From: Burkholderiales bacterium
GTDB taxonomy: Bacteria; Pseudomonadota; Gammaproteobacteria; Burkholderiales; SG8-39
Direction: 5' to 3'
Length of the DNA: 64,000 nucleotides
Assembly (NCBI GenBank): GCA_050248795.1
Contig: JBFWRS010000003.1
Location: 6,500 to 70,499 of the forward strand
Below the pieces are notes generated by a model. The model saw only the letters and a program-made list of their open reading frames with translations. It was not told the origin of the DNA and ran no database searches. Numbering within the stretch: position 1 is the stretch's first letter; the number at the start of each line of letters is the position of its first letter. The position numbers were made by a program, and so were the translations under genes. Below, in pieces: positions 28,102-57,765 of this stretch.

Positions 28102-28125
28102 CCGGGCCGCGACGCGGCCCGGTTT
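28102..28125 (+). terminator. stem-loop terminator after the His-rich gene
   Basis: CCGGGCCGC-GAC-GCGGCCCGG perfect 9-bp stem followed by TTT. The short T tract merges into the FNR box. Confidence 0.5.
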
Positions 28126-28137
28126 GATCCCGGTCAA
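28124..28137. promoter_or_regulatory. FNR/Anr box (ccoI promoter)
   Basis: TTGATcccgGTCAA, 33 bp from the ccoI ATG. TAGCAT hexamer begins 21 bp after the box. Confidence 0.7.
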
Positions 28138-28170
28138 GCCTGCATCGGCGAATGCGGCTAGCATCCGCCG

Positions 28171-30657
28171 ATGAATCCCGTCTCCCGGCCCGCCTGTTTT
28201 CACTGCGGGCTGCCCGTATTGCCGCCCTCGGCCGAGCGCGCCGTGGTGCTGGGCGCGGCGCGCGAATTCTGCTGCAGCGGCTGCGCCGCGGTGGCGCAGG
28301 CGATCGTCGCCGGCGGTTTCGAGCGCTATTACGAAACGCGCGAGTTGCCGCAGCCGGGCGCAGAGCCCGGCCCGCTTCCCGCCGGCCTGCCGCCTGCCTC
28401 CACCTACGATGACCCGGCCGCGCAACGCCAGTTCGTGCTGCCGCGTGGCGAGCACGAGCGCGAAGCCACGCTGATCCTTGACCGGCTGCACTGCACCGCC
28501 TGCGTGTGGCTGACCGAATCCTGGCTGCGCCGGCAGCCGGGCATCCTGCGCGCGGACGTAAACGCCGGCACGCGCCGCGCGGTGGTGGCCTGGGATGCAC
28601 GAGAAACCCGTCTGGGCGCGATCATCGAGGCGATCCGCGCCATCGGCTACGAAGCCTGGCCCTGGGATCCGGCACGCCAGGACGCGGTCGAGCGCGGCGA
28701 ACGCAGGCGCGCGTTGTGGCGCCTGTTCGTCGCCGGGTTCGGCGCCATGCAGGTGATGATGTACGCGTTTCCCGCATACATCGACGGCGGCGAGACCATG
28801 TCCGCCGACGCAGAAAGCCTGATGCGCTGGGCGAGCCTGATCCTGACGCTGCCGGTGCTGCTGATCTCCTGCCAGCCGTTCTTCGCATCCGCTTGGCGCG
28901 AGCTGCGCCTTCGCCGCGTCGGCCTGGACACGCCGATTTCGCTCGGCATCGTCGGCGGCTTCGCCGCCAGTGCCTGGGCGACCGTCAGCGGCGCGGGCGA
29001 GGTGTACTTCGATTCGATCGCCATGCTGGTGTTCCTGCTGCTCGCCGCGCGCTGGGCCGAGCTTGCCGCGCGCGGCCGCGCCGGGCGCGAGCTCGATCGC
29101 GTGCTGCGCTGGATGCCCGAGGTGGCGCTGCGCCTGCGCGACCCGGCGGATGCGGCAAGCGTCGAGCGCGTTGGCGCGCACGAACTCGCCGCCGGCGAGC
29201 ACGTGCTGGTGCCCGCGGGCGAGCGCGTGCCTGCCGACGGCGTGGTGGTGCACGGCGCATCGGGCGTCGACGAGTCGCTGCTCACCGGTGAAGCACGCGC
29301 GGTGGCCAAGTCCGCGGGCTCGGCGCTGGCCGCAGGCGCGGTGAACCTGGAGCAGCCGCTGGTGATGCGCGTCACGCACGCCGGCGCCGACACCGGCGCC
29401 GCCGCCATCGGCCGCCTGGTCGAACGCGCCGCGGCTACGCGCCCGCAACTGGTTTCCGCTGCCGACCGCATCGCCGGCACCCTGACCGCGGTGGTGCTGG
29501 GCGCCGCCGCGCTTGCGTTCATAGTCTGGCTGCAACTGGAACCCGGGCGCGCGGCATGGATCGCGGTCGCGGTGCTGGTGGCGACCTGTCCGTGCGCGCT
29601 GGCGCTGGCGGCACCGATCGCGCTGACCGCGGCAAGCTCGCGGCTGCTGGCGCGCGGCATCGTGCAGACCCGCGGCCGCGCCATCGAGGCGCTGGCGCGC
29701 GCGACCGACGTGGTCTTCGACAAGACCGGCACGCTCACGCAAGGCCAGCTCTCGCTCGCCGCGACCACCACGCACGCGCAGCGCAGCGTAGCCGAGTGCC
29801 TTGCCATCGCGCAGGCGCTGGAAGCGGGCAGCCGCCACCCGGCGGCGCGCGCGTTCCTGCAGGCGCCGGCGCAGCCGCTGCCCGCGGTATCGGACCTGTT
29901 GCAGGTGCCCGGCCGTGGTGTCGAGGCGCGCGTCGCGGGCGAGCGCATGCGCATCGGCAGCGCTTCGTTCTGCGCCGAACTCGCAGGCAGCGCCGTGCCG
30001 CCGACCGACGCTTCGGTGCACCTGGCGGGCGAGCCCGGCTGGCTCGCCTCGTTCAGGCTGGAAGACGCGACGCGTACCGAGGCGCAGTCGCTGCTCGCCA
30101 CGCTACGCGGCGCGGGGCTGCGCATCCATCTCGCCAGCGGCGACCGCACGCAAGCGGTGCGCGCGCTTGCCGCGGAACTGGGCATCGAAGACTGGCGCGC
30201 CGAATGCACGCCGGCAGACAAGCTCGCGCTGGTGGCGGCGCTGCAGCGCGAGGGCCGTACCGTGGTGATGGTGGGCGACGGCCTGAACGACGCGCCGGTG
30301 CTGGCTGGTGCCGATGCGTCGGTCGCGGTGGCGGGCGGCTCGGACGTGGCGCAGTTGACCGCGGATCTCGTGCTGCTCGGCGCGCGCGTCGGCGAACTCG
30401 CCGCCGCGCTTGCCATCGCGCGTCGCACCATGGCGATCATCCGGCAGAACTTCCTCTGGGCGCTGGGCTACAACCTCGTCGTGCTGCCGCTGGCGATGTG
30501 GGGCATCATCGGGCCCTGGGAGGCCGCCATCGGCATGGCGGCCAGTTCGGTCATCGTCGTCGTCAATGCGCTGCGGGTGTTCGAGCGCACGACATCCGGA
30601 AGCACATGGAAAGCCTCGCCATCCTCGTTCCCCTCTCCGTCGCGCTCGTATTCCTGA
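28171..30657 (+). CDS. ccoI: copper-translocating P1B-type ATPase CcoI/FixI
   Basis: N-terminal CFHCGLP, CPC in the TM helix (VATCPCALA), DKTGTLT and GDGLNDAP. Followed by ccoS. Confidence 0.9.
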   Translation: MNPVSRPACFHCGLPVLPPSAERAVVLGAAREFCCSGCAAVAQAIVAGGFERYYETRELPQPGAEPGPLPAGLPPASTYDDPAAQRQFVLPRGEHEREATLILDRLHCTACVWLTESWLRRQPGILRADVNAGTRRAVVAWDARETRLGAIIEAIRAIGYEAWPWDPARQDAVERGERRRALWRLFVAGFGAMQVMMYAFPAYIDGGETMSADAESLMRWASLILTLPVLLISCQPFFASAWRELRLRRVGLDTPISLGIVGGFAASAWATVSGAGEVYFDSIAMLVFLLLAARWAELAARGRAGRELDRVLRWMPEVALRLRDPADAASVERVGAHELAAGEHVLVPAGERVPADGVVVHGASGVDESLLTGEARAVAKSAGSALAAGAVNLEQPLVMRVTHAGADTGAAAIGRLVERAAATRPQLVSAADRIAGTLTAVVLGAAALAFIVWLQLEPGRAAWIAVAVLVATCPCALALAAPIALTAASSRLLARGIVQTRGRAIEALARATDVVFDKTGTLTQGQLSLAATTTHAQRSVAECLAIAQALEAGSRHPAARAFLQAPAQPLPAVSDLLQVPGRGVEARVAGERMRIGSASFCAELAGSAVPPTDASVHLAGEPGWLASFRLEDATRTEAQSLLATLRGAGLRIHLASGDRTQAVRALAAELGIEDWRAECTPADKLALVAALQREGRTVVMVGDGLNDAPVLAGADASVAVAGGSDVAQLTADLVLLGARVGELAAALAIARRTMAIIRQNFLWALGYNLVVLPLAMWGIIGPWEAAIGMAASSVIVVVNALRVFERTTSGSTWKASPSSFPSPSRSYS

Positions 30658-30794
30658 TCGGCGTGCTGTTCTGGCGCGCGCTGCACGGCGGCCAATTCGA
30701 GGACCTGGACAAGCCCGGCGTCGACGTGCTGATGGACGATGACACGCCGCCCAGGTCGAAGAGGCAGGGGCAGGGCCCCGAGCCGCGTAGCTAG
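30606..30794 (+). CDS. ccoS: cbb3 oxidase maturation protein CcoS/FixS
   Basis: 62 aa. MESLAILVPLSVALVFLIGVLFWRALHGGQFEDLD is typical of CcoS. Start lies 52 nt inside the ccoI 3' end in another frame. Confidence 0.8.
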   Translation: MESLAILVPLSVALVFLIGVLFWRALHGGQFEDLDKPGVDVLMDDDTPPRSKRQGQGPEPRS

Positions 30795-31189
30795 CCCATC
30801 GTCAGGGCTTTTTCGATCGCGATCTTGTACAGCACGCGCTGCTCGGTCGCGCTGCGGTTCGGGTATTTGTCCTGGCCGAGGTATTTCTTCGCCATCGCGT
30901 CGATGTGCGCGTCGGCGCCTTCCTGCGTGATCTCCCGCACGCGCCCGCGCACCTCGACGTAGCGGTAGGGATTGTCCGGGTCGATGACGGTGACTGCGAC
31001 GCGCGGGTCGCGCCGCACGTTCTTGTCCTTGCGGCGTCCCACCGCCGAATTCACCCAGAGCTCGCCGTCGTGGTAGTCGACCCACACCGGCGTGGTCTGC
31101 GGACTGCCGTCTGGCATCAGCGTGGTGAAGGCGCAGAAGGCCTTCTTCTGGAACAGGTCGAGGTACTTCTCCGGGAATGCAGCGGCCAT
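30791..31189 (-). CDS. pyridoxamine 5'-phosphate oxidase (PPOX)-family flavoprotein
   Basis: TTLMPDGSPQTTPVWVDY..LWVNSAVGRRKDKNVRRDPRVAVTVID...YVEVRG split-barrel pattern. Confidence 0.75.
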   Translation of the reverse strand: MAAAFPEKYLDLFQKKAFCAFTTLMPDGSPQTTPVWVDYHDGELWVNSAVGRRKDKNVRRDPRVAVTVIDPDNPYRYVEVRGRVREITQEGADAHIDAMAKKYLGQDKYPNRSATEQRVLYKIAIEKALTMG

Positions 31190-31278
31190 GTCGGTTTCCT
31201 TGAGTTTGAGGTTCGCATTCTACGTTGGGCGGGCATGCCGAGCGCGTTGCGAACCGGGATCAGGCCTTTGTTCCGGAT

Positions 31279-31292
31279 TTGATGCAGGTCAA
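31279..31292. promoter_or_regulatory. FNR/Anr box (ccoN promoter)
   Basis: TTGATgcagGTCAA inside the 22-bp palindrome GGATTTGA-TGCAGG-TCAAATCC. TAGCAT hexamer 21 bp downstream. 62 bp from the ccoN ATG. Confidence 0.8.
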
Positions 31293-31354
31293 ATCCGCCG
31301 CCCGGCGCTTGCCTAGCATTGCGGTGCGGCACGTACCGCGCACGGGGAAGGCAT

Positions 31355-32782
31355 ATGGCTGCCGAAACGGCATACAACTACAAGGTGGTCCGCCAGTTTG
31401 CGGTGATGACCGTAATCTGGGGCGTCGTCGGCATGCTGGTCGGCGTCATCATCGCGGCGCAACTGATCTGGCCGGACCTCAACTTCGGCCAGTCGTGGCT
31501 GTCGTACGGCAGGCTGCGGCCGCTGCACACCAATGCGGTGATCTTCGCCTTCGGCGGCTGCGCGCTGTTCGCCACCTCGTACTACGTCGTGCAGCGCACC
31601 GCGCATGCGCGGCTGTTCTCGGACGGGCTGGCCGCGTTCACGTTCTGGGGCTGGCAGGCGGTGATCGTGCTCGCCGCGATCACGCTGCCGCTGGGGATCA
31701 CCAGTTCGAAGGAATACGCCGAGCTCGAGTGGCCGATCGACATCCTGATCGCGCTGGTGTGGGTGTCCTACGCCATCGTGTTCTTCGGCACGCTGGCGAA
31801 GCGCAAGGTCGAGCACATCTACGTCGCCAACTGGTTCTTCGGCGCCTTCATCATCACGGTGGCGATCCTGCACATCGTCAACAGCGCGGCGATGCCGGTG
31901 ACCTTCTGGAAGTCCTACTCGGCCTACGCCGGCGCGCAGGACGCCATGGTGCAGTGGTGGTACGGGCACAACGCGGTGGGCTTCTTCCTCACCGCCGGGT
32001 TCCTCGGCATGATGTACTACTTCATCCCGAAGCAGGCCGGGCGGCCGGTATACTCGTACCGCCTGTCGGTGGTGCACTTCTGGGCGCTGATCTTCACCTA
32101 CATGTGGGCGGGGCCGCACCACCTGCACTACACCGCGCTGCCCGACTGGACGCAGTCGCTCGGCATGGTGTTCTCGCTGATCCTGCTCGCGCCCTCGTGG
32201 GGCGGCATGATCAACGGCATCATGACGCTGTCGGGGGCGTGGCACAAGCTGCGCACCGACCCGATCCTCAAGTTCCTCATCGTCTCGCTGTCGTTCTACG
32301 GCATGTCGACCTTCGAGGGGCCGATGATGTCGATCAAGACGGTGAACGCGCTGTCGCACTACACCGACTGGACCGTGGGCCACGTGCACAGCGGGGCGCT
32401 CGGCTGGGTCGGCCTGGTGTCGATGGGCTCGATCTACTACCTGCTGCCGCGGCTCTATGGCCGCAGCGAGATGTTCAGCGTGCCCGCGATCAACCTGCAC
32501 TTCTGGATCTCCACCATCGGCATCGTGCTGTACATCGCCGCGATGTGGATCGCCGGCGTCATGCAGGGGCTGATGTGGCGCGCGGTGGGCGAGGACGGCA
32601 CGCTCACCTACACCTTCGTCGAGAGCGTCAAGGCAACGTACCCGTTCTATGTCATCCGCCTGCTGGGCGGGCTCTTGTACCTGTCGGGCATGCTGCTGAT
32701 GACCTGGAACATGGTGAAGACCATCAACGCCGGCCGTGCCGCGGAGGCGCCGATCCCGGCACCCGTGGCCGCGCACGCCTGA
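31355..32782 (+). CDS. ccoN: cytochrome cbb3 oxidase subunit I
   Basis: [15 protein letters not shown] start after GGGGAAGG. 12-TM heme-copper oxidase sequence with HNAVGFF and WAGPHHL motifs. Confidence 0.95.
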
Positions 32783-32821
32783 GATCGCGCGCGTGCGATC
32801 GAAAACAGACGGAGAAAAATA

Positions 32822-33430: not shown

Positions 33431-33438
33431 GGGAAGCC

Positions 33439-35893: not shown

Positions 35894-35897
35894 TGAC

Positions 35898-36574: not shown

Positions 36575-36581
36575 AAAACGG

Positions 36582-37721: not shown

Positions 37722-37731
37722 CCTGCGCGGC

Positions 37732-38970
37732 TCAGTCGTACAGGTGCCTGCGCGTCGGCGGCAGCGCGTTGTTGCGCGCGCGGGCGAACGTGACCTGGAA
37801 CAGCTGCATCATGCCGGTGGTGAAGGCCGCGATCGAGCCCGCGAGGTACAGGTGCCAGATGCGCGCGAACTCGTCGCCGCGCGAGGTGCGAATGGAATCG
37901 AGCGCGGCGAGGTAGCGCGCCAGCCAGTGCCCGAGCGTCTGCGCATAGTGCAGGCGCAGGTTCTCGACGTCGAGCACGCTGAAGTCGAACGGCTCGAAGA
38001 TCGCCATCATCTCCGACAGCGCCGGCGGGTGTGCGCCGGGGAAGATGCGCCGCTCGATCCAGCCGATCATCGGCATCGGCCGGTTGCGCCCGATGGTGTG
38101 GATCAGGCCGATGCCCTCGGGCGCGAGGCAGCGCTCGATGGTGGCGCCGAGCGCGCGGTAGTTCTCCGGGCCGACGTGCTCGAGCATGCCCACCGACACG
38201 AAGGCGTCGCACTCGCCCTGGATGTTGCGGTAGTCGTCCTCGATGAAGCTGACGCGGTCGCCCAGTCCCGAGGCGCGGGCGCGTTCGCTGGCGTAGGCGA
38301 TCTGCTCGCGCGAGATGTTCCAGGCGCGCACGCTGACGCCGTACTCGCGCGCCATGTGCAGCGCGAAGCCGCCCCAGCCGCAGCCGGCCTCGATGACGCG
38401 CTGCCCGGGCTTCAACTGCAGCTTGCGGCAGACGTGGTCCATTTTCGCGCGCTGTGCCGCTTCCAGCGTCATGCCGGGTTCGGGGAAGTAGGCGCAGGTG
38501 TACTGCATCGCGTCGCGGTCCAGCCACAACTCGTAGAAGTCGTTGCCGAGGTCGTAGTGGTGCTGGATGTTGTCGCGCGCATCGGTGAGCGAGCGCCCGC
38601 GCGGCGCCGGCGGCCGCCACAGTTGCCACCACGGCGAGGACTGCGCGCGGCGTCCCGCTTCGAGTGCGGCATAGGTGCGCTCGAGGAACGACACCAGGTT
38701 GCCCTCGACTTCGATGCGGCCCTGGCCGTAGAGGTCGCCGAAGTGCAGTTCCGGATTGCGCACCAGCTGGCGCAGCGCGGAGCGGTCGGCGATGTGCACG
38801 CGCATGTCCGAGCCGCTCGCGCCGGCCGACGAGCCGTCCCACAGCACGGTTTCGTAGCCGGCGCGCGGCAGCGCAGCCATCATCGTGCGCAGCAGCCAGC
38901 GGTCGAATGCGCTGGCGCGTTCCGCCTGCGGCTTGGGTGACGGGAGCGACCGTTGAGACGTGAACGTCAT
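37732..38970 (-). CDS. cfa: cyclopropane-fatty-acyl-phospholipid synthase family methyltransferase
   Basis: HYDLGNDFYELWLD, SAM motif VIEAGCGWGG and MLEHVG. 10 bp upstream of the FAD oxidoreductase gene. Confidence 0.85.
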   Translation of the reverse strand: MTFTSQRSLPSPKPQAERASAFDRWLLRTMMAALPRAGYETVLWDGSSAGASGSDMRVHIADRSALRQLVRNPELHFGDLYGQGRIEVEGNLVSFLERTYAALEAGRRAQSSPWWQLWRPPAPRGRSLTDARDNIQHHYDLGNDFYELWLDRDAMQYTCAYFPEPGMTLEAAQRAKMDHVCRKLQLKPGQRVIEAGCGWGGFALHMAREYGVSVRAWNISREQIAYASERARASGLGDRVSFIEDDYRNIQGECDAFVSVGMLEHVGPENYRALGATIERCLAPEGIGLIHTIGRNRPMPMIGWIERRIFPGAHPPALSEMMAIFEPFDFSVLDVENLRLHYAQTLGHWLARYLAALDSIRTSRGDEFARIWHLYLAGSIAAFTTGMMQLFQVTFARARNNALPPTRRHLYD

Positions 38971-39054
38971 CAGCTGCCTCCTGTACTCTGGCCCGGTAGT
39001 ATAAAAACGCCGTGCCCGGATTTGTCCACCATGGCACCGGGTTCGCCGGCGCGC

Positions 39055-39068
39055 TTGACATGGATCAA
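39055..39068. promoter_or_regulatory. FNR/Anr box between divergent cfa and cytochrome c operons
   Basis: TTGACatggATCAA. nAnnAT hexamers sit 21 bp away on both sides: TAGGCT on plus, CATGGT on minus. Confidence 0.7.
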
Positions 39069-39095
39069 TCCGCGCGGGAGTGTGTACCCTAGGCT

Positions 39096-39440
39096 ATGCA
39101 GGCGCAAGCGCTCAACCCCACAGGAGATGCGGTGCCGGTTTTCCCGATTGTCCGCAGCATCGCCGCAATGATGGCCGCGGCGGCTTGCCTGGCGTGGCTC
39201 CCTGGCGCTGCAGCGCAGGACGCCGAGCGCGGCAGGAAGCTCTACGAGAACCACTGCCTCGAGTGCCATTACGAGCGCATTCACAAGCGCGACCCGTCGC
39301 GCTCGCTTATTCGCAGCTACGCGGGGCTTCAGGCCGAGGTCGCGCGCCGGGGCGCACTCACCAGCCAGCGCTTCGCGATCGACGACCTGAACGACATCGC
39401 CGAGTACCTCAACCGCACGCACTACCGGCTGGCGAAATAG
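39096..39440 (+). CDS. monoheme c-type cytochrome (maximal ORF; probable start 39168)
   Basis: CLECH heme motif. Signal-like MMAAAACLAWLPGAAAQD begins at 39168. The ATG at 39096 lies only 27 bp from the FNR box, upstream of the predicted TSS near 39102. Confidence 0.7.
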   Translation: MQAQALNPTGDAVPVFPIVRSIAAMMAAAACLAWLPGAAAQDAERGRKLYENHCLECHYERIHKRDPSRSLIRSYAGLQAEVARRGALTSQRFAIDDLNDIAEYLNRTHYRLAK

Positions 39441-39448
39441 CATTCCGC

Positions 39449-42582: not shown

Positions 42583-42596
42583 TTGAGCCAGATCAA
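42583..42596. promoter_or_regulatory. FNR/Anr box (acyl-CoA ligase operon promoter)
   Basis: TTGAGccagATCAA. CAGCAT hexamer 22 bp downstream. 64 bp from the ATG at 42661. Confidence 0.65.
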
Positions 42597-42660
42597 GCCG
42601 CGTTATTTCCTTCCGCGCCAGCATGCGCTCAGGTACAGCCAACATCAGGGAGTGCGTTGC

Positions 42661-44372
<1,712 letters not shown>

Positions 44373-47544: not shown

Positions 47545-47557
47545 CGAGAGGAATGCG

Positions 47558-47818
47558 ATGAACGAAGCGGAAGTGCGGGCAGGGGTGATCGCGGTGATCA
47601 GGTCGATCGCGCCCGAGGTCGAGGAGGGCGAGATCGACCCGGCGCGTTTGCTGCGCGACCAGATCGACCTCGACTCGATGGACTGGCTGAACGTGATCGT
47701 CGCATTCCACGAGCGCTTCGGCATCGACATCCCCGAGGCCGACTACGCCAGGCTGACCACGCTGGATGCGGTGGTCGGCTACATCGCCGCGAAGAAAGCG
47801 GGAAAGCCCGCCGGCTAG
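47558..47818 (+). CDS. acyl carrier protein / phosphopantetheine-binding protein
   Basis: 86 aa four-helix pattern with DQIDLDSMDWLNV (DS attachment motif). GAGAGGAA RBS. Confidence 0.7.
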   Translation: MNEAEVRAGVIAVIRSIAPEVEEGEIDPARLLRDQIDLDSMDWLNVIVAFHERFGIDIPEADYARLTTLDAVVGYIAAKKAGKPAG

Positions 47819-48342
47819 AGTTCTTTCACGATCCGCACCAGCGTGCGGTCTTCAGGCACCGGCTCGACGCGAAATCCGAGTGCTCGCACGAAGCGCAGCA
47901 TCGGCCGGTTGGTGGCGAGCACCAGGCCTTCCATGCGCCGCAGGCCGCGCGCGCGCGCCGCCTGCATCAGCGCGTCCATCAGCACACCCGCCAGCCCGGA
48001 CTTCTGCCAGGCGTCCGCGATGACGATGCCGAGCTCGCAACTGCGCCCGTCCGGCGCGGCGACGTAGCGCGCCTCGCCGACCACTTCCTCGCCGCCGTCG
48101 CGCGCGTGCGTGCCGAGCAGCGCCAGGTGCTTGTCATGGTCGACGTCGGTGAGGAAATGGATCAGCCGGTCCGAGGGCGCATGCACCCACTTCTGGAACC
48201 GCAGGTAGCGCGTCTCGCCCGACAGGTGCTGGATGAAGTCCCGCTCGGCGAGGTCGTCGTCGCGGCGCACCGGGCGGATGTGCACCATGCGGCCGTCGCG
48301 CAGCCGCAGCCGCTTTTCGAGTTCCGCGGGGTACGCGGCCAT
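47815..48342 (-). CDS. stand-alone Pat-type GNAT acetyltransferase
   Basis: 175 aa, colinear with the C-terminal GNAT of the 24909-27593 protein: YPAELE, LRDG, IRPVRRDD, RYLRF, DAWQKSGLAG. The long track ORF to 48951 is an upstream extension in the same frame. Confidence 0.75.
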   Translation of the reverse strand: MAAYPAELEKRLRLRDGRMVHIRPVRRDDDLAERDFIQHLSGETRYLRFQKWVHAPSDRLIHFLTDVDHDKHLALLGTHARDGGEEVVGEARYVAAPDGRSCELGIVIADAWQKSGLAGVLMDALMQAARARGLRRMEGLVLATNRPMLRFVRALGFRVEPVPEDRTLVRIVKEL

Positions 48343-48427
48343 CAGCGCTGTACCGATCGGGCCGGGCGGGCGTTGGCATCCATGGCGTAGGGTATGCTGG
48401 ATCGGCACGGCGCGAGAAGGCGCGGGT

Positions 48428-48441
48428 TTGACCGGCGTCAA
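48428..48441. promoter_or_regulatory. FNR/Anr box (small ORF / Lon-like operon promoter)
   Basis: TTGACcggcGTCAA inside the palindrome GCGGGTTTGAC-CGGC-GTCAAACGCGC. CAGGAT hexamer 21 bp downstream. 33 bp from the ATG at 48475. Confidence 0.65.
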
Positions 48442-48474
48442 ACGCGCGTGCCGCAGCGGAGGCAGGATCATGCC

Positions 48475-48792
48475 ATGCTGACATTCGAGGACTGCATCGC
48501 CCTGTGCGGCCTGAGCGAGGACGAGGTGCGCGCGATTGCCGAGCACGAGCACATACCGGAGCTCGCCGCCGCCGAGTACGGCAATTACCTCGCCAGCACG
48601 CCCGAGGGCGAACAATGCATCCGCGCGATGATCCGCGACGACATCGCGAACGCCGCGGCATCCGGCAACCTCGAGCGGCAGCTCGCGCTGAAGCTGGTGC
48701 TGCGCAATTTCATCCTGCAGCACCCGCGCTGCGAACAGCGCCACCGCGACGAGCTTCACCTGCCTGAGCGCCGCCTGGCGGGCAGGAGCTGA
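48475..48792 (+). CDS. hypothetical helical protein (105 aa) preceding the Lon-like protease
   Basis: ATG at 48475. Its stop lies 1 nt before the Lon-like ATG. No recognisable family. Four Cys. Confidence 0.5.
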   Translation: MLTFEDCIALCGLSEDEVRAIAEHEHIPELAAAEYGNYLASTPEGEQCIRAMIRDDIANAAASGNLERQLALKLVLRNFILQHPRCEQRHRDELHLPERRLAGRS

Positions 48793-48793
48793 C

Positions 48794-51247
48794 ATGCAGG
48801 CCGCCTCGCCCGCGCCGCTCGCGGCGGCGCAGCTGTGCCGCCGCTGCGACCCCGAGCGGCTGGGATTCGGCACCACCGACGAGCTCACCGACCTCGCCGA
48901 CCCGCCGGGCCAGGCGCGCGCCGAGGGCGCGATCCGCTTTGCGGTGGACATGGTGCACGAGGGCTACAACCTGTTCGTCATGGGGCCGGAGGGCTTCGGC
49001 CGCCGCAGCATGATCCGCCGCATCCTCGAGCGCCGCGAGCCGCCGCGCGCGGATGCGCTGTCCGACTGGTGCTACGTGTTCAATTTCGCGCAGCCGCACC
49101 AGCCGCGCGCGCTGCGGCTTCCCGCCGGCCGCGCGGCGAAGCTGCGCGACGGCATGGCGCGACTGGTCGAGGACCTGGGCGCGGCGATTCCGTCGGCGTT
49201 CGAGACCGACGAGTACCGCACGCGCCAGAAGGAAATCGAGCGCGTGTTCGAGCAGCGCCAGGAAGAAGCGCTCGGCGCGGTGGGCGATCATGCGCGCAAG
49301 GACGGCATCGCGCTCTTGCGCACGCCTTCCGGCTTCGGCTTTGCGCCGCTGCACGAAGACGCCGTGATGGAGCCGGATGCGTTCCGCAAGCTGCCGCAGG
49401 CCGAGCAGGAACGCCTGCAGCATCGCATCGCCGAGCTGCAGGAGGAGCTCGAGGCGGTTATCCACGAGATGCCGAAGTGGCGCCGCGAGGCGCAGCGCCA
49501 GTTGCGCGAGCTGAACCGCCAGGTCGCCAGCGCGGCGGTGAACGGCCTGATCGAGGAGCTCGAGTCCGCTTGGCGCGACCTGCCGGCGGTGAGCGCGTAC
49601 CTGGGCGAGGTGCGCGAGGACGTGCTCGAACACGCGGAATACTTCCGCCAGTCGAAGGACGGCGAGCGCCCGACGCTGTTTGGCATGCCGTTGCCGATGC
49701 CCGAGGGCGGCGATGCGCCGCTGCGCCGCTATGTCGTCAACGTGCTGGTGGAGAACGCCGACGCGCAGGCCGTGCCCATCGTCACCGAGGAAAACCCCAC
49801 GCACGACAACCTGCTCGGGCGCATCGAGCACATCGCGCAGATGGGCACGCTGGTAACGGACTTTTCGCTCATCAAGGCGGGCGCGCTGCATCGCGCCAAC
49901 GGCGGCTACCTGGTGCTGGACGCGGTGAAGGTGCTGTCGCAGCCCTTCGCCTGGGAGGCGCTCAAGCGCGCGCTGCGCTCGCGCGAGATCCGCACCGAGT
50001 CGCTGGGGCGCGCGCTCAGCCTGGTGAGTACCGTGTCGCTGCTGCCCGAGCCGATCCCGCTCGCGCTCAAGGTGGTGCTGGTGGGGCCGCGCATGATCTA
50101 TTACCTGCTGCACGCCTACGACCCGGAGTTCGCGGAACTGTTCAAGGTGGCGGCCGACTTCGAGGATGACTTCGAGCGCAGCGTCGAGGCCGACCGGCTC
50201 TACGCGCGCCTGGTGGCGACGATCGCGCGGCGCGAGAAGCTGCGCGCGCTCGATGCCGGCGCGGTGGCGCGCGTGATCGAGCACGCGGCGCGCACCGCCG
50301 GTGCGGCGGAAAAGCTGTCGGCGAACCTGGCGCGGCTTGCCGACCTGCTGCGCGAATCGGACCACTGGGCCGCCGCCGGCGGCAGGACGGTCACCGGCGC
50401 CGCGGACGTGCAGCGCGCCATCGACGCGCAGGACGAGCGCGCCGGTCGCGTGCGCGACCGCATGCACGAGGCGATCTTCAAGGGCACGCTGCTGATCGAC
50501 ACGCGCGGCGAGCGCGTCGGGCAGGTGAACGGCCTCGCCGTCACCGAGCTCGGCGGCCGCGCCTTCGGCATCCCGCACCGCATCACGGCGCGCGTGCGCC
50601 TGGGCAGCGGCAGGGTGATGGACATCGAGCGCGAAGCCGAGCTCGGCGGGCCGATCCATTCCAAGGGCGTGCTGATCCTCTCAGGCTTCCTCGCCTCCCG
50701 CTACGCGGCGAAGCTGCCGCTCGCGCTGTCGGCCAGCCTGGTATTCGAGCAGAGCTACGGCGGCGTCGAGGGAGACAGCGCGTCCTCGGCGGAACTGTGC
50801 GCGCTGCTATCGGCGCTCGCCGAGGCACCGCTGCGCCAGTCGCTCGCCATCACCGGCTCGGTGAACCAGCATGGCGACGTGCAGGCGATCGGCGGCGTCA
50901 ACGAGAAGATCGAGGGCTTCTTCGATGTCTGCCGCGCGCGCGGGCTGGCGGCGGGGCAGGGCGTGATCATCCCGGCCGCCAACGTGCAGCACCTGATGCT
51001 GCGCGCGGACGTGGTGCAGGCGGTGGCGGAAGGCCGCTTCGCGATCTATCCGGTCGGCTCGATCGACGAAGCTGCGGCGCTGCTGAGCGGCATGCCCGCG
51101 GGCGAGCGCGATGCGCTGGGCGCATTCCCGCCCGGATCGCTGAACGGCCGGGTCGAACAGCGCCTCACCGATTTCGCGGCACAGGCGCGCGGCGCCGCGC
51201 CAGGACGCGAGCGCAGGCGCGATGCGCGCACGGGGCGGCGGCGATGA
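48794..51247 (+). CDS. Lon-like protease with degenerate AAA module (LonC/COG1067-like)
   Basis: C-terminal Lon S16 domain with GDSASSAE (Ser) and GGVNEKIEG (Lys). N-terminal P-loop-like VMGPEGFGRRS with Arg where the Walker A Lys is expected. Long helical insertion. Confidence 0.85.
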   Translation: MQAASPAPLAAAQLCRRCDPERLGFGTTDELTDLADPPGQARAEGAIRFAVDMVHEGYNLFVMGPEGFGRRSMIRRILERREPPRADALSDWCYVFNFAQPHQPRALRLPAGRAAKLRDGMARLVEDLGAAIPSAFETDEYRTRQKEIERVFEQRQEEALGAVGDHARKDGIALLRTPSGFGFAPLHEDAVMEPDAFRKLPQAEQERLQHRIAELQEELEAVIHEMPKWRREAQRQLRELNRQVASAAVNGLIEELESAWRDLPAVSAYLGEVREDVLEHAEYFRQSKDGERPTLFGMPLPMPEGGDAPLRRYVVNVLVENADAQAVPIVTEENPTHDNLLGRIEHIAQMGTLVTDFSLIKAGALHRANGGYLVLDAVKVLSQPFAWEALKRALRSREIRTESLGRALSLVSTVSLLPEPIPLALKVVLVGPRMIYYLLHAYDPEFAELFKVAADFEDDFERSVEADRLYARLVATIARREKLRALDAGAVARVIEHAARTAGAAEKLSANLARLADLLRESDHWAAAGGRTVTGAADVQRAIDAQDERAGRVRDRMHEAIFKGTLLIDTRGERVGQVNGLAVTELGGRAFGIPHRITARVRLGSGRVMDIEREAELGGPIHSKGVLILSGFLASRYAAKLPLALSASLVFEQSYGGVEGDSASSAELCALLSALAEAPLRQSLAITGSVNQHGDVQAIGGVNEKIEGFFDVCRARGLAAGQGVIIPAANVQHLMLRADVVQAVAEGRFAIYPVGSIDEAAALLSGMPAGERDALGAFPPGSLNGRVEQRLTDFAAQARGAAPGRERRRDARTGRRR

Positions 51248-51906
51248 ACGCGCGGCGCATCGTGCTCGGGCTCGAGGCCGGCATGTCGGCACGCGAACTC
51301 GAGGCAACCGCACAACTGGCGCAGCGCGTCGATGCCGAGCTGCTCGGCCTGTTCGTCGAGGATGCGGACCTGCTGCGCTTCGCCGAATTGCCTTTCGCGC
51401 TGGAGATCGGGCACGCGTCCGCGCAGCGGCGCAGGCCCGATGCGGCCGCGCTGCAGCGCGAGATGCGCGCGCTGGCGGCCGAGGCCGAGCGCGCGCTCGC
51501 CGGCATCGCCGCGCGCGTGCCGGTGCGCTGGTCGTTTCGCGTCACGCGTGGCTACGCCGCCACGGAGCTGCTCGCCGCGGCCGCCGAGGCGGTGGGCGCG
51601 GATCTGCGCCTGCTGCTGCTGGGCGACGGCGATTCGCCGGTGACGCGATGGGCGGAGGCAGCCTGCGCGCGGCTCGCCGGCACCAGCGCGGCACCCAGGC
51701 TGGAACTGGTGCGCGCGGCGGACGTCGATGAACTGGCCGCCGCGCTGCAGGCGGCTGCGCCGGGCGTCGTCGTGCTGCGCGCCGAAGCGTCGTTGCTGTC
51801 GCAGCGCGGCTTGCCGGACCTGCTGCAACGCAGTGCCGCGTCGGTTCTGGTGCTGCCGACGCGCCCTGCAGTGCCGCGGCCGCGCGCGGCGTCAGCGCGC
51901 CACTAG
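51244..51906 (+). CDS. hypothetical protein (220 aa), translationally coupled to the Lon-like gene
   Basis: ATGA overlap with the Lon-like stop. Ala/Leu/Arg-rich with alternating strand/helix pattern. No motif recognised. Confidence 0.45.
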
Positions 51907-53519
51907 TACGGCGATTCCGGCGGCTGCGCTGCGGCGCGCTCCGGCAGGCGCGCAATCATGACGTCTGTGGTGAGCGCAAGGCCGGCGATCGACGCGGCGT
52001 TCTGCAGGCCGGCGCGCGTCACCTTGCACGGGTCAAGGACCCCCATCTCCACCAGGTCGCCGTACTCGCCGGTGGCGGCGTTGTAGCCGAAGTCTCCCTT
52101 TGCCTCGACCACGCGATTGACGACCACCGAGGGTTCGTCGCCAGCGTTGCGCGCGAGCTGGCGCAGCGGGTCCTCGAGCGCGCGCAGCACGATGCGGATG
52201 CCGGCATCCTGGTCGGCGTTGCCGCCGTGCAGGCCCTTCTGCAGGCGCGCGCGGGCGCGCAGCAGCCCGAGGCCGCCGCCCGGCAGCACGCCTTCCTCGA
52301 CCGCGGCGCGCGTCGCGTGCAGCGCGTCCTCGGTGCGCGCCTTGCGCTCCTTCATCTCGGTTTCGGTCGCGGCGCCGACCTTGATCAACGCCACCCCGCC
52401 TGCGAGCTTGGCGGCGCGTTCCTGCAGTTTCTCGCGGTCGTAGTCGCTGCCGGCGTCGTCGATCTGCCGCCGGATCGCGGCGACGCGCGCGTCGATGGCC
52501 GCGGGATCGCCGCCGCCGCCGATCAGCGTGGTGTCGTCCTTGTCGATCTCGACGCGCCTGGCGCGCCCGAGGTCCTCGAGCGACGCCTTCTCCAGCGACC
52601 TGCCTGCTTCCACCGAGATCACCCTGGCGCCGGTGAGCACCGCGAGGTCCTCCAGCATCGCCTTCCTGCGGTCGCCGAACCCGGGCGCCTTGACGGCGCA
52701 GGCCCTGATCACGCTGCGCAGCGAGTTGACCACCAGCGTGGCGAGCGCCTCGCCCTCGACCTCCTCGGCGATGACCAGCAGCGGCTTGCCGAGCTTGGCG
52801 ATGCCCTCCAGCAGCGGCAGCATGTCGCGGATCGCCGATATCTTGCTGTCGCACAGCAGCACCTGCACGTCCTCGAGCACCACGCGCTGCTTTTCCGCGT
52901 CGTTGATGAAGTACGGCGAAAGGTAGCCGCGGTCGAACTGCGTGCCCTCGACGACTTCGAGCTCGCTCTTCAGTCCCTTGCCGTCCTCGACGGTGATGAC
53001 GCCTTCCTTGCCCACGCGTTGCATTGCCTCGGCGACCATGTCGCCGATCGCGGCGTCGTTGTTGGCCGAGATCGTCGCCACCTGGGCGATCTCGGTGCGC
53101 GTCGAGCAGGGCCGCGCGGTGCGCTTCAACTCCTCGACGATCGCGGCGACAGCGAGGTCGATGCCGCGCTTCAGGTCCATCGGGTTCATGCCGGCGGCGA
53201 CGTACTTCATGCCCTCGGCGACGATGCCGGCGGCGAGCAGCGTCGCCGTGGTGGTGCCGTCGCCGGCGATTTCGGAGGTCTTCGAGGCCACCTCGCGCGC
53301 CATCTGCGCGCCCATGTTCTCGAACGGATCCTCGAGCTCGACTTCCTTCGCCACGACGACGCCGGAATTGATGATCTGCGGCGCACCGAAGCTGCGCTCC
53401 AGCACCACGGTGCGCGCCTTCGGTCCCAGCGTCACGCGCACTGCATCCGCCAGGATGCCGATGCCGCGCAGGATCTTCGCGCGGACCTGGTCGCCGAACA
53501 GGATACGCTTTGCACTCAT
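51903..53519 (-). CDS. groEL: orphan GroEL/Cpn60 paralogue (no groES, no GGM tail)
   Basis: [20 protein letters not shown]..., [15 protein letters not shown] motif. 538 aa ending ...AAQPPESPY. Confidence 0.9.
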
Positions 53520-53552
53520 GCCGTCATTTTTTCCCAATGCAGCCGTGGCCCT

Positions 53553-53566
53553 TTGACGCAGATCAA
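53553..53566. promoter_or_regulatory. FNR/Anr box centred between divergent groEL paralogue and kinase-like gene
   Basis: TTGACgcagATCAA, exactly 33 bp from each start codon (53519 and 53600). AAAAAT (minus) and GAGCAT (plus) hexamers lie 21 bp from the box. Confidence 0.7.
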
Positions 53567-53599
53567 GCCGGCAGCCGGCTCGCCGCGGAGCATCGTGCC

Positions 53600-55141
53600 G
53601 TGGAACCGCTCGTTGCCGCATTGCAGGACCCGGCCTGCTACCCCCATCCGGTCGCCGGCGTGCAGCTCATCGAGACGCACATCTCCTGGGTGCTGCTGGC
53701 GGGCGACTACGCCTACAAGATCAAGAAGCCGGTGCGATTCGCCTTCCTCGATTTCTCGACGCTCGAGGCGCGCAGGCGCTACTGCGAGGAGGAACTGCGC
53801 CTGAACCGCCGCACCGCAGCCAGCTACTACCTCGACGTGGTGGGCATCACGCAGGGTGACGCCGGCGTTCGGATTGCTGCCGCGGGCCAGCCGGTGGAGT
53901 ACGCGGTACGCATGCGCAGGTTCCCGCCAGGCGCGCTGGCCGAGGACGCGGCCAGGCGCGGTGCGCTAGACGCCGCCGGCATCGACGCGATCGCGGCGGC
54001 GGTGGCGGCGTTCCATGCCGAGACGCCGCGCGCCGGGTCGGGCGATGCCTGGGGCGAGCCGCGGGACATCGCCGCGCAGGCGCTCGCCAACTTCGACGAC
54101 ATCGCCGCGCTCGCGCCGTCGCCGGGCGGCGCAGATGCCGCGCGGCTGGCGTTCCTGCGCGACTGGACGCGGCGCGCGTGCGCCGAGCTGGCGCCAGCGT
54201 TCGATGCGCGGCGCGCCGGCGGCTTCGTGCGCGAATGCCACGGCGACCTGCACCTTGGCAACATCGCCTTCGTCGACGGCGGCGCGATGCCCTTCGACTG
54301 CATCGAGTTCGACCCGGGCTTGCGCTGGATCGACGTCGTCAGCGAGATCGCGTTCCTCTTCATGGACCTGCTCGCGCACCGGCTGCACGCGCTGGCATGG
54401 CGCCTGCTGAACGCCTGGCTGCAGGAAAGCGGCGACTACGCGGGCGTCCGGCTGCTGCGCTTTTACGCCGTGTACCGCGCCATGGTGCGCGCCAAGGTGG
54501 CGCGGCTGTCGGGCGCGCTCGACGCGGCCTCCGGCTATATCGCGCTGGCCGACGCGCTCGCCCGCGTCGAGCCGCACGGCCTGGTGCTGATGCATGGCGT
54601 GTCGGGCGCTGGCAAGACGGTGGCGTCGCAGGCGCTGCTCGAGCACCTGGGTGCGGTGCGCCTGCGTTCGGACGTCGAGCGCAAACGCCTCGCGGGCCTG
54701 GCGGCGCAGGCGCGCGCGGCCGCGCCGCCGGGCGCGGGCATCTACGATGACCGTTCGACCGAGCGCACCTACGAGCGGCTGGCGGTGCTTGCCGCCGGGA
54801 TCCTCGAATCAGGCTGGCCGGCAGTGGTGGACGCGGCGTTCCTTCAGCGCGCGCAGCGAGACGCGCTGCGGGGCGTGGCGCAGCGGCTGCGCCTGCCCTG
54901 CGCGATCGCCGCGTGCGAGGCGCCGGAAGCGGATCTGCGCCGCCGCATCGCGGCGCGCGAAGCCGCGGCGCAGGATGCATCCGACGCCGGCATCGCGGTG
55001 CTGGAGCGCCAGCTCGCGGACCGCGAGCCGCTGGGGGAAGACGAGCAGCGCATGGCGGTGCGCATCGACACGCAGGACGGGAATGCGTTGCGCCAGGGCC
55101 TGGAAGAGATCGCGCTGCGGCTGGCGCAGCCGGGCGGCTGA
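53600..55141 (+). CDS. bifunctional aminoglycoside-phosphotransferase-like kinase / P-loop ATP-binding protein (Rv2004c-like)
   Basis: APH/kinase motifs [11 protein letters not shown] and CIEFD. C-terminal Walker [12 protein letters not shown] at 53600 preferred; the track start at 53510 would span the FNR box and overlap groEL. Confidence 0.75.
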
Positions 55142-55157
55142 CGCGGGCGCGCCGGGC

Positions 55158-56135
55158 CTATCGATGCGCCATCACGCGCGCGATCATTTCGTCGAGGTCG
55201 GCGTGGTGGTTCAGCACCTGGTCTACCGCCTGCGAGATCGGCATGTCGACGCCGAGCTTGCGCGCGAGCGCGACGATGCCTTCGGCCGAGGCCGCGCCCT
55301 CGGTGACCACGGTGCGGCCGGCCAGTACCTCGGCGGCGGATTTACCCTCGCCGAGGGCGACCCCGAACGAGGTGTTGCGCGAATGCAGGCTGTTGGCGGT
55401 CAGCATCATGTCGCCGATGCCGGCGAGGCCGTCGAAAGTCTCGCGGCTCGCGCCTTTCGCCAGGCCGAGGCGCACCGCCTCGGTCAGTCCGAGCGTGATG
55501 ACGGTGGCACGCGCGTTCTCGCCCAGCTTCCTGCCGGCGGCGACGCCGCTGGCGATGGCGATGACGTTCTTCATCACGCCGCCGATCGCGGCGCCGATCA
55601 GGTCGTCGATCGGGTGCACGCAGAAATGCGGGTTGGCGATGGTGGTGGCGAGTGCCCGCGCCAGCGACAGGTCGGCCGCGGCCAGCGCGACACCGCAGGG
55701 CAGGTCCTCGGCCAGTTCGCGCGCGAAGGATGGCCCGGAGAGGATCGCGATGCGCGCCTGTGGCAGTGTTTCGGCCAGAACCTCGGGCATCAGCGCCAGC
55801 GTGCCGCGCTCGATGCCCTTGGAGCAGCTCACCACCGGCAAGCCGGGTTTCAGGTGCGGCCGCAGCGCGGTGGTGACCTCGCGCATGCGCTGTGCCGGCG
55901 GCGCGAGCACCAGCACTTCGGCGTGCGCGGTTGCCGCGGCGAGGTCGCCGGTGGCGACGATGCCTGGAACGAGCTGCGCGCCGGCGAGGAACTGCCTGTT
56001 AACCCCCGCGCTGTTGATAGAGTCGACCACTTCCGGCTCGCGCGCCCACAGGAGGACGTCGTGTCCGGACCTGCGCACGACGCATGCCATGGCGGTGCCG
56101 AACGCGCCACCGCCGATGATGCCGATGTTTGCCAT
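55158..56135 (-). CDS. gpsA: NAD(P)H-dependent glycerol-3-phosphate dehydrogenase
   Basis: MANIGIIGGGAFGTA Rossmann motif, GPSFA and GVMKNVIAIA motifs. The track ORF to 56438 is an upstream extension in the same frame. Confidence 0.85.
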   Translation of the reverse strand: MANIGIIGGGAFGTAMACVVRRSGHDVLLWAREPEVVDSINSAGVNRQFLAGAQLVPGIVATGDLAAATAHAEVLVLAPPAQRMREVTTALRPHLKPGLPVVSCSKGIERGTLALMPEVLAETLPQARIAILSGPSFARELAEDLPCGVALAAADLSLARALATTIANPHFCVHPIDDLIGAAIGGVMKNVIAIASGVAAGRKLGENARATVITLGLTEAVRLGLAKGASRETFDGLAGIGDMMLTANSLHSRNTSFGVALGEGKSAAEVLAGRTVVTEGAASAEGIVALARKLGVDMPISQAVDQVLNHHADLDEMIARVMAHR

Positions 56136-56168
56136 GGTCAAATCATGCCTTGGAAGCCCGGCCTGCGC

Positions 56169-56182
56169 TTGACCGGGATCAA
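56169..56182. promoter_or_regulatory. FNR/Anr box between divergent gpsA and FGGY kinase
   Basis: TTGACcgggATCAA, 33 bp from the gpsA ATG (56135) and 30 bp from the FGGY ATG (56213). CATGAT hexamer 21 bp away on the gpsA side. Confidence 0.7.
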
Positions 56183-56212
56183 ACCGGGCGGGTCGATGCG
56201 CGTGGGGACGAA

Positions 56213-57676
56213 ATGACGACGATGGCGGCGGATTCCGGGCGCCTGGTGCTGGCGATAGACCAGGGCACGCACGCGAGCAGGGCGCTGGTGCTGGATGCGC
56301 GCGGGCAGATCCTCGCCTCGGCGGAGCAGGGCATCGGCCTCGCCCGCCCCCAGGCCGACTGGGCGGAGCAGGATGCGGACGAGGTCGTCGCCTCGGTGTT
56401 CGCGGCGGTGGACGCGGCGACGCGCGCGCTCGGTGCACGCCGCGCGGACCTCGCCGCCGCCGGCCTGGCGTGCCAGCGCGCCAGCGCGGTGTGCTGGAAC
56501 CGGCGCGACGGCACGCCGCTGTCGCCTATCTTCAGCTGGCAGGACCGTCGCGCGCACGCGTGGATAGACCAGCTCGCGCCGCATGGCGAGGACGTGCACC
56601 GGCGCACCGGCCTGTTCCTGTCGCCGCACTATGGCGCGTCGAAGCTGCGCTGGGCGCTGGACCACCTGCCCGCGGTGCGCGCGGCGCGGGACGCGGGGAC
56701 GCTGGCGTGGGGGCCGATGGCGAGCTTCGTCGCCTTCCGCCTGCTGAAGGAGCGGCCGCTGTACGCGGATCCGCAGTGTGCGGCGCGCACGCAACTGTGG
56801 AACGTGCACACGCGGGACTGGGATCCGGAGCTGCTGGCGCTGTTCGGCCTGCCGGGCGGATTCCTGCCGGCGAGCTTTCCCACCTGCGGCGCCTGGGGCA
56901 CGCTGCAGGCCGGCGGCGCGAGCGTGCCGCTGACCGCGGTGAACGGCGACCAGTCCGCGGCGATGTTCGCCTTCGGCTGGCCGGAAGGCGATTCGGCGTA
57001 CATCAACATCGGCACCAGCGCGTTCGTGCAGCGCGCGCTGGAACGCTATCCGCAAGGCGTGACGCGCCAGCTCACCGGCATCATCCTGCAAGACGGCGAC
57101 ACCATGCTGTACATGGTGGAGGGCAACGTCAACGGCGCCGGCACCGCACTGGAGTGGTTCGCCAACCAGTTCCCGGTCGAAGGCGACCTGGTGGCGCAAC
57201 TGTCGCATTGGCTCGAGCGTCCGGCCGCTGGGGTGCCGCTGTTCCTGAACGGCATCGCCGGCCTCGGCGGTCCGTTCTGGCAGGCGGAGTTCGCCTCGCG
57301 CTTCGTCGATGATGGGGGCGAGAGTGAAACCTGGCAGAAGGCGGTGGCGCTGGTGGAGAGCATGGCGTTCCTGCTGCAGGCGAACATCGACTACATGGCC
57401 GGCCATGTGCCGGCGCCGCGGCGGATCCGCGTCAGCGGCGGACTGTCGCGCTTCGATGGACTGTGCGCGCGGCTCGCTTCCCTGAGCGGCCTGCCGGCGC
57501 ACCGGCGCGACGACCCCGAGGCGAGCGCGCGCGGCATCGCCTACCTCGCCGCAGGACGGCCCGCGGGCTGGAACTCCGGTGCGCGCGAGGAAATCTTCCC
57601 GCCGCGGCCGGATGCGGGCCTGCGCCAGCGCTACCGGCGCTGGCGCGCGCTGATGGCCGAGGCCACCGGGATCTGA
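56213..57676 (+). CDS. FGGY-family carbohydrate (glycerol-like) kinase
   Basis: LAIDQGTHASRALV N-terminal ATPase motif and FGGY N- and C-terminal domains. Alternative ATG at 56222. Confidence 0.8.
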   Translation: MTTMAADSGRLVLAIDQGTHASRALVLDARGQILASAEQGIGLARPQADWAEQDADEVVASVFAAVDAATRALGARRADLAAAGLACQRASAVCWNRRDGTPLSPIFSWQDRRAHAWIDQLAPHGEDVHRRTGLFLSPHYGASKLRWALDHLPAVRAARDAGTLAWGPMASFVAFRLLKERPLYADPQCAARTQLWNVHTRDWDPELLALFGLPGGFLPASFPTCGAWGTLQAGGASVPLTAVNGDQSAAMFAFGWPEGDSAYINIGTSAFVQRALERYPQGVTRQLTGIILQDGDTMLYMVEGNVNGAGTALEWFANQFPVEGDLVAQLSHWLERPAAGVPLFLNGIAGLGGPFWQAEFASRFVDDGGESETWQKAVALVESMAFLLQANIDYMAGHVPAPRRIRVSGGLSRFDGLCARLASLSGLPAHRRDDPEASARGIAYLAAGRPAGWNSGAREEIFPPRPDAGLRQRYRRWRALMAEATGI

Positions 57677-57688
57677 TCGACCGCCTGC

Positions 57689-57702
57689 TTGACGCAGATC
57701 AA
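57689..57702. promoter_or_regulatory. FNR/Anr box (hsp20-usp-usp operon promoter)
   Basis: TTGACgcagATCAA, identical to the 53553 site. AACAAT hexamer 21 bp downstream. 63 bp from the hsp20 ATG. Confidence 0.75.
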
Positions 57703-57765
57703 CCGCCTGCGGCGGGCGTGCGCAACAATTCACTCGTCATAACCACGGATCCGCAAGGAGGCGAT

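Follow-up and report, generated by a model that had tools for sequence, protein, structure and literature searches.

In Escherichia coli, 19 of the 23 sites at FNR-activated promoters with a known transcription start site (TSS) lie at -41.5 +/- 4, including five at -40.5 and nine at -41.5 (Myers et al., PMC3688515). Most FNR-activated sites of E. coli are centred at -40.5 to -42.5 (PMC3688515). In Sphingopyxis granuli TFA, the Fnr boxes upstream of ccoN, uspA, hemN and other genes are centred at -40.5 to -42.5 by mapped TSSs, and the promoters are class II (PMC7713065). Furthermore, the lxa locus of Burkholderia cenocepacia J2315 possesses 17 TGA-N6-TCA motifs in 50 genes and is supposed to be controlled by Anr/FNR-like proteins of the CRP family (PMC3721108). 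In the present study, the FNR boxes and the hexamers beside them were analyzed in a window of 64,000 nt from an uncultured Burkholderiales bacterium (assembly GCA_050248795.1, contig JBFWRS010000003.1, positions 6,500 to 70,499; positions below are those of the window unless a contig is named). The promoters of the window are very probably ordinary class II sigma-70 promoters under the control of an oxygen sensor of the FNR type, and we infer FNR binding and oxygen dependence from the features described below.

Eight exact TTGA-N6-TCAA boxes were found between 28124 and 57702, with starts at 28124, 31279, 39055, 42583, 48428, 53553, 56169 and 57689 (Table 1), and all of them were where the initial annotation, made from the letters alone, had placed them. 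A scan with TTGAT-N4-ATCAA allowing at most one mismatch recovered seven of the eight. The base composition of the window was about 68-70% G+C, and 0.19 boxes were expected in the shuffled window; no shuffle attained eight. Both arms of each box were read, 16 arms in total. In nine arms the distance between box edge and hexamer start was 21 bp, and in the arm of the AMP-ligase operon it was 22 bp; all ten hexamers had A at the second and T at the last position. At other offsets in the box arms, nAnnnT had a background frequency of 0.024, and the probability of at least nine of 16 arms at 21 bp was 2.3e-11. The predicted +1, the seventh base after the hexamer, was a purine in all ten arms (6 A, 4 G). 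In addition, the would-be -35 position reads AAnnnn, made up of the last two box bases and four spacer bases, indicating that no -35 hexamer is present, as is typical of class II FNR promoters. No hexamer was found at 21-22 bp on the gene-facing arms of PPOX, GNAT and FGGY, and the other three hexamer-less arms point at gene ends. These results bear out the ten hexamers of the initial annotation, its spacing of 21 bp (22 bp for the ligase operon), its rule of A and T at hexamer positions 2 and 6, and its three gene arms lacking a hexamer; its ten TSS coordinates were also arithmetically correct. Its label nAnnAT was suitable for eight of the ten hexamers, while CATGGT and TAGGCT deviated from it.

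The spacing was further studied in the 3.79-Mb assembly that contains the window (114 contigs, 68% G+C), which held 51 TTGA-N6-TCAA boxes against about 7 expected from composition. The relatives of its proteins were metagenome-assembled genomes of Burkholderiales/Betaproteobacteria. Over 100 box arms of the genome, nAnnnT was found in 24 arms at 21 bp, 15 at 22 bp, 7 at 23 bp and 6 at 24 bp, compared with about 2 arms at any other offset from 5 to 44. The probability of at least 24 of 100 arms at 21 bp was 1.4e-17. Outside the window, 15 arms had the hexamer at 21 bp and 14 at 22 bp. Since the genome offsets are split between the two distances, the 9:1 ratio of the window overstates the rigidity. 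The layout had been called rigid in the initial annotation; the fixed offset is non-random, but the word is too strong for a spacing that is really 21-22 bp. Among the matches listed, which came from seven further genomes of the order, box and TAnnnT were 21 bp apart in 36 cases and 22 bp apart in 30, and every other gap occurred at most 9 times.

The same distances are known from E. coli K-12. The nirB promoter has 21 bp between the edge of the FNR box and TAAGGT, and narG, dmsA and fnrS have 22 bp to TACCTT, AATACT and CAATAT, respectively. Moreover, the class II FNR promoters of E. coli, yfiD among them, and those of the window share a TTGAT-N4-ATCAA box and a weak -10 element, the box lying over the -35 region in E. 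coli and over the predicted one in the window. A true departure from -41.5 was considered and rejected: E. coli has both -40.5 and -41.5 with the same 21-22 bp between box and hexamer, so the -40.5 predicted here falls within normal variation. Different from E. coli, the window promoters stand in a high-GC context with -10 hexamers such as TAGCAT and TAGGCT, and two of the boxes appear to be used in both directions, by divergent promoters.

The hexamers might also be chance A/T-containing words or the site of a second factor instead of -10 elements, and CATGGT, CAGGAT and GAGCAT are indeed far from TATAAT. This explanation is extremely improbable, because the chance probability of such a placement is 2e-11 for the window and 1e-17 for the whole genome, and the same offset recurs in other genomes and in E. 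coli. Further, the only invariant positions are 2 and 6, the two most important positions of a -10 element; the seventh base downstream is a purine in every one of the ten arms, and the start codons are in register with the hexamers.

The composition of the hexamers was compared over the 39 genome arms whose hexamer lay 21 or 22 bp from the box. Position 1 was T in 14, C in 12, G in 10 and A in 3 arms; position 3 was G in 19; position 4 was C in 16, G in 15, A in 8 and T in none; position 5 was A in 18 and C in 16. The best word was TAGCAT, with five occurrences. For the general leaderless -10 element, the genome has the consensus TAGAAT/TACAAT, and 57% of cases show A at position 4, whereas A was found at position 4 in one of the 14 T-initial FNR hexamers. 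The FNR hexamers thus depart from the general -10 element mainly by C or G at position 4. The recurrence of AGCAT had been regarded as notable in the initial annotation. TAGCAT is the best word, but it looks like no special element, and AGCAT as a separate motif was rejected; it is most simply a -10 element one base off the general TAGAAT. As such, AGCAT fits the weak -10 element expected of an activator-dependent gene.

The best CRP-family match in the genome was the protein encoded at 60813-61553 on the minus strand of the window, which aligned with positions 12-242 of the 250 positions of the NCBIfam profile Fnr NF008365 at 224 bits. It was the sole CRP-family protein of the assembly in which the Cys cluster and the E--SR helix occurred together. 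The FNR of E. coli and that of the window are alike in possessing a C-X2-C-X5-C...C cluster and an E--SR helix. The TTGA-N6-TCAA core is common to the FNR, Anr, Dnr and FixK regulons. Another activator of the CRP/FNR family (Dnr-, NnrR- or FixK-like) might hence use some or all of the boxes and answer to NO or a relay and not directly to oxygen; at least seven CRP-family proteins of the genome exceed the Pfam cut-off, and one of them, on contig C58, has an EIVSR helix without the Cys cluster. Such an activator seems improbable, because the sole protein with the full FNR signature is encoded inside the box-dense island, and no denitrification genes were noted beside the window boxes. Also, ccoNOQP, ccoI, hsp20 and the stress genes are typical of FNR/Anr and lxa-type regulons (PMC3721108).

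The boxes were clustered, with eight in 29.6 kb of the window compared with a genome mean of one per 74 kb. On contig C3, ten boxes lie within 44 kb (34623-78245), and the fnr gene (60813-61553 in the window) is inside this cluster. The cluster together with fnr looks like an lxa-like low-oxygen island. The two are alike as betaproteobacterial islands dense in boxes, with eight boxes in 29.6 kb and an adjoining fnr gene in the window, and both hold alpha-crystallin/hsp20, a cation-transporting ATPase, a metal-dependent RNase, a protease and other stress genes (PMC3721108). The window island differs from the lxa locus in also having cbb3 oxidase genes. The spacing between box and -10 element and leaderless transcripts are not described in the available passages on the lxa locus (PMC3721108). 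In Sphingopyxis granuli TFA, as in the window, one Fnr box lies between divergent genes, there ccoN and ompW; it differs in being an alphaproteobacterium with experimentally mapped TSSs, and the word 'leaderless' is not in the paper (PMC7713065).

In half of the ten window arms the start codon coincided exactly with the predicted +1, namely in those of ccoI, the open reading frame (ORF) of 105 aa, the groEL paralogue, the kinase and gpsA. The Shine-Dalgarno sequence was absent before all five codons, where the 12 nt upstream consist of the hexamer and 6 nt. The other five genes had leaders of 29-51 nt, all with a clear Shine-Dalgarno sequence. A start codon at the predicted +1 implies a leaderless mRNA and lends independent support to the predicted TSSs; the exact TSSs and leaderless translation are inferred. 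Genome-wide, the start codon of an ORF of 100 aa or more fell on the sixth to eighth nucleotide after the hexamer in 16 box arms. In a count blind to the hexamers, nine long-ORF ATGs stood 33 bp and five stood 34 bp from the box edge, and no other distance from 0 to 119 had more than three. The offset of 21-22 bp and the start codons at 33-34 bp imply a box centre at -40.5/-41.5. Furthermore, the composite pattern of box, 21 or 22 bp, nAnnnT, 6 or 7 nt and ATG gave 11 hits in this genome, 9-11 in two members of the family and about 120 over 81 genomes of the order, compared with one for the reversed control.

Over the whole genome, TAnnnT followed by 6 nt and ATG, taken before ORFs rich in G+C at the third codon position, was counted 135 times against about 27 at other spacings, with 69 at 7 nt. 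This peak makes the order of hexamer, 6 nt and +1 the general geometry of the organism. By the same count, roughly 4-8% of its genes would be leaderless, which is high for a proteobacterium. In the differential RNA sequencing of B. cenocepacia, a primary TSS exactly at the start codon was found in only 72 genes, far fewer than implied here (PMC4603805), and GeneMarkS-2 put few Proteobacteria among the leaderless-rich organisms (PMC6028130). No paper joining 'leaderless' with FNR, Anr or FixK box terms was found in the full-text literature search.

Compact intergenic regions might bring start codons to +1 by coincidence, with the true TSSs further upstream or the true starts downstream and the transcripts not leaderless. 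High-GC ORFs run upstream of several of these ATGs, the TSSs are predicted only, and one candidate uses GTG. This coincidence is improbable, since the spike at exactly 33-34 bp (14 ATGs, compared with at most three elsewhere) is unexpected from compactness alone, and the N-termini agree with family profiles and homologue lengths (Table 1). The presence of a Shine-Dalgarno sequence in all five leadered genes and its absence before the five codons also argue against it, as do the genome-wide peak of TAnnnT, 6 nt and ATG and the orthologues of the same promoter, which have either a leader of 0-2 nt or a longer one with a Shine-Dalgarno sequence.

The orthologous promoters were compared for the same elements. 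For the groEL paralogue, five genomes of the same family had the box, exactly 21 bp and then TAGCCT, TAGGCT, TAGCAT, TATCCT or CAAGAT. The leader was 0 nt in one genome (box-21-TATCCT-6-ATG) and a few tens of nucleotides with a Shine-Dalgarno sequence in the others. For the kinase, 11 of the 16 homologue loci with a box at most 250 bp upstream had TAnnnT exactly 21 bp after the box. Homologues of the 105-aa ORF showed box-21-CAGGAT-7-ATG, box-21-GATCAT-8-ATG and box-21-GACGAT-21-ATG, the last with a Shine-Dalgarno sequence. As the orthologues keep the box, the 21 bp and the hexamer while the leader varies, the conserved unit is the box with its hexamer; the drift downstream of the predicted -10 element is as expected of a promoter.

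The class II FNR arrangement with a box centre near -40.5, as proposed in the initial annotation, is supported by the offset peaks of the genome and the order, the orthologues, E. coli, the FNR of the window and the five start codons. The following points weigh against it. About 50 arms of the genome carry a hexamer 20-24 bp from the box, and chance would account for about 12 of them. On the cfa arm, CATGGT is a poor -10 element, and a near-consensus TATACT lies at 39003-38998 (-), 51 bp from the box and 30 bp beyond CATGGT. The score of the window FNR is slightly below the NCBIfam cut-off of 228 bits, and the CRP-family protein on contig C58 might share boxes with it. The leaderless candidate of the kinase uses GTG, a codon that initiates leaderless mRNAs poorly in E. 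coli. The sequencing runs holding the organism were DNA metagenomes only (landfill, sludge, compost), and RNA runs shared at most 0.17 of the sampled words with it. Four metatranscriptomes over the ccoN region gave short pieces about 90-95% identical to the conserved ccoN coding sequence and belonging to other organisms; their depth was 0 over 31150-31352, leaving the promoter and 5' region uncovered, and the TSSs stay predictions.

Taken as class II FNR promoters, these regions would work as follows. At low oxygen, the [4Fe-4S] FNR dimer encoded at 60813-61553 would bind the TTGAY-N4-RTCAA box, which would span about -47 to -34 in place of a -35 hexamer. FNR would then recruit RNA polymerase to a deliberately weak -10 element 21-22 bp downstream of the box edge, and transcription would begin at a purine, the seventh (sometimes the eighth) nucleotide past the hexamer, giving a box centre at -40.5/-41.5. 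The fixed spacing would reflect the geometric need of the contacts between FNR and RNA polymerase and no special local feature. The boxes at 39055 and 53553 would serve divergent promoters on both arms, and for ccoI, the 105-aa ORF, the groEL paralogue, the kinase and gpsA the start codon would be the first triplet of the transcript.

The layout is that of a textbook class II FNR promoter, and its novelty is thus low. No new mechanism is proposed, but a solid promoter model is obtained for an uncultured bacterium: box, 21-22 bp, nAnnnT, 6-7 nt and a purine at +1. With this model, about 40 promoters and their TSSs can be predicted, and several gene starts that automatic callers would move upstream are corrected, among them those of the kinase, the groEL paralogue and the 105-aa ORF. 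The less ordinary feature would be how often leaderless transcripts are predicted in the FNR regulon of this family: judged from the sequence, about one third of the FNR promoters appear to yield leaderless mRNAs, unlike E. coli, compared with about 4-8% of all genes. The recurrence across the order (about 120 hits vs 1) suggests a regular feature of low-oxygen regulons in some Betaproteobacteria, which is unusual for Proteobacteria. A precedent is the PRM promoter of phage lambda, where an activator at about -42 contacts sigma region 4 and drives the naturally leaderless cI mRNA; it differs in that it involves the lambda repressor family and a single promoter and no regulon-wide feature. A bolder idea, tentative and on balance unlikely, is that the low-oxygen FNR regulon of this Burkholderiales family was selectively built of leaderless mRNAs, given one third of FNR promoters against 4-8% of genes. 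If so, energy-starved hypoxic cells would translate CcoI, GpsA, the GroEL paralogue, the Rv2004c-like kinase and the LonC-associated protein by 70S initiation independent of Shine-Dalgarno sequences, and one compact module of 47 bp, sometimes bidirectional, would couple the control of transcription with that of translation.

Class II promoters on the arms facing PPOX, GNAT and FGGY were considered and rejected. On the PPOX arm, a consensus TAGAAT was found at 31222-31217 (-), for which the box would sit at about -75.5, and the promoter is probably FNR-independent. The GNAT arm has CAGCAT at offset 28. The FGGY kinase has its ATG only 30 bp from the box, so that a promoter for this gene has to overlap either the box or the coding sequence of gpsA; FNR bound at the gpsA box could repress it. 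Transcription of cfa from TATACT would place the box at a class I-like distance, about -70.5, and leave a leader of 21 nt; either this promoter, that of CATGGT or both may be used.

Table 1. Positions of the FNR boxes, predicted -10 hexamers, leaders, start codons and related genes in the window (distances are from the box edge to the hexamer start unless stated otherwise).
Feature	Position	Strand	Sequence	Details
FNR box, ccoI promoter	28124..28137		TTGATCCCGGTCAA	exact TTGA-N6-TCAA; hexamer on + arm only
Predicted -10, ccoI	28159..28164	+	TAGCAT	21 bp; predicted +1 28171, the A of the ccoI ATG; predicted leaderless
Start codon, ccoI	28171	+	ATG	domain start at residue 8 (Pfam ATPase-cat_bd profile position 1) of the protein begun here
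FNR box, ccoN promoter; PPOX on other arm	31279..31292		TTGATGCAGGTCAA	exact match
PPOX-family gene	30794-31189	-		ATG at 31189
Predicted -10, ccoN	31314..31319	+	TAGCAT	21 bp; predicted +1 31326 (G)
Leader, ccoN			GGGGAAGG	29 nt; ATG at 31355; COX1 domain in protein
FNR box, common to divergent cfa and cytochrome c promoters	39055..39068		TTGACATGGATCAA	exact match
Weak -10 candidate, cfa	39028..39033	-	CATGGT	21 bp; predicted +1 39021 (A)
Leader, cfa				51 nt to ATG at 38970; CMAS domain in protein
Predicted -10, cytochrome c	39090..39095	+	TAGGCT	21 bp; predicted +1 39102 (G)
Leader, cytochrome c			CAGGAGA	30 nt; GTG at 39132
FNR box, AMP-ligase operon promoter	42583..42596		TTGAGCCAGATCAA	exact match
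Predicted -10, AMP-ligase operon	42619..42624	+	CAGCAT	22 bp; predicted +1 42631 (A)
Leader, AMP-ligase operon			CAGGGAG	30 nt; ATG at 42661
FNR box, small ORF/LonC-like protease operon; GNAT on other arm	48428..48441		TTGACCGGCGTCAA	exact match
GNAT gene	47818-48342	-		
Predicted -10, 105-aa ORF	48463..48468	+	CAGGAT	21 bp; predicted +1 48475, the A of the ATG; predicted leaderless
Start codon, 105-aa ORF	48475	+	ATG	767 homologues, mostly 102-107 aa, 95-100% query cover
FNR box, divergent groEL paralogue and kinase	53553..53566		TTGACGCAGATCAA	33 bp from each start codon
Predicted -10, groEL paralogue	53526..53531	-	AAAAAT	21 bp; predicted +1 53519, the A of the ATG; predicted leaderless
Start codon, groEL paralogue	53519	-	ATG	residues 1-534 align to GroEL profile 1-533
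Predicted -10, kinase	53588..53593	+	GAGCAT	21 bp; predicted +1 53600, the G of the GTG; predicted leaderless
Start codon, kinase	53600	+	GTG	homologues align from query residues 1-4
FNR box, gpsA promoter	56169..56182		TTGACCGGGATCAA	exact match
Predicted -10, gpsA	56142..56147	-	CATGAT	21 bp; predicted +1 56135, the A of the gpsA ATG; predicted leaderless
Start codon, gpsA	56135	-	ATG	domain start at residue 4 (NAD_Gly3P_dh_N profile aligns from position 2)
FGGY kinase	56213-57673	+		ATG at 56213, 30 bp from opposite edge of gpsA box
FNR box, hsp20 promoter	57689..57702		TTGACGCAGATCAA	exact match
Predicted -10, hsp20	57724..57729	+	AACAAT	21 bp; predicted +1 57736 (G)
Leader, hsp20			AAGGAGG	30 nt; ATG at 57766
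fnr gene, likely cognate regulator	60813..61553	-		CSSCNLRELC N-terminal cluster, fourth Cys in SEVCVLPY, ETVSR recognition helix

The predicted 5' untranslated regions were strikingly uniform, with 29-30 nt and a Shine-Dalgarno sequence at four of the five leadered promoters (31326-31355, 39102-39132, 42631-42661 and 57736-57766). The identical 14-mer TTGACGCAGATCAA was found at three promoters of the genome, at 53553-53566, at 57689-57702 and at position 1908 of contig C87. The groEL gene beside an FNR box (51906-53519, -) is a second copy; family members have an orthologue of it at 74-79% identity and a housekeeping groEL at about 68-70%. The box upstream of this paralogue was kept in five of the six genomes with an orthologue, and in the sixth none was near the gene within the locus. 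The 105-aa ORF belongs to a large family that gave no Pfam or NCBIfam match; 767 homologues were found, nearly all within the 102-107 aa range. This ORF lies directly upstream of the LonC-like protease (48475-51244), and the same order was found in at least one other metagenomic contig.

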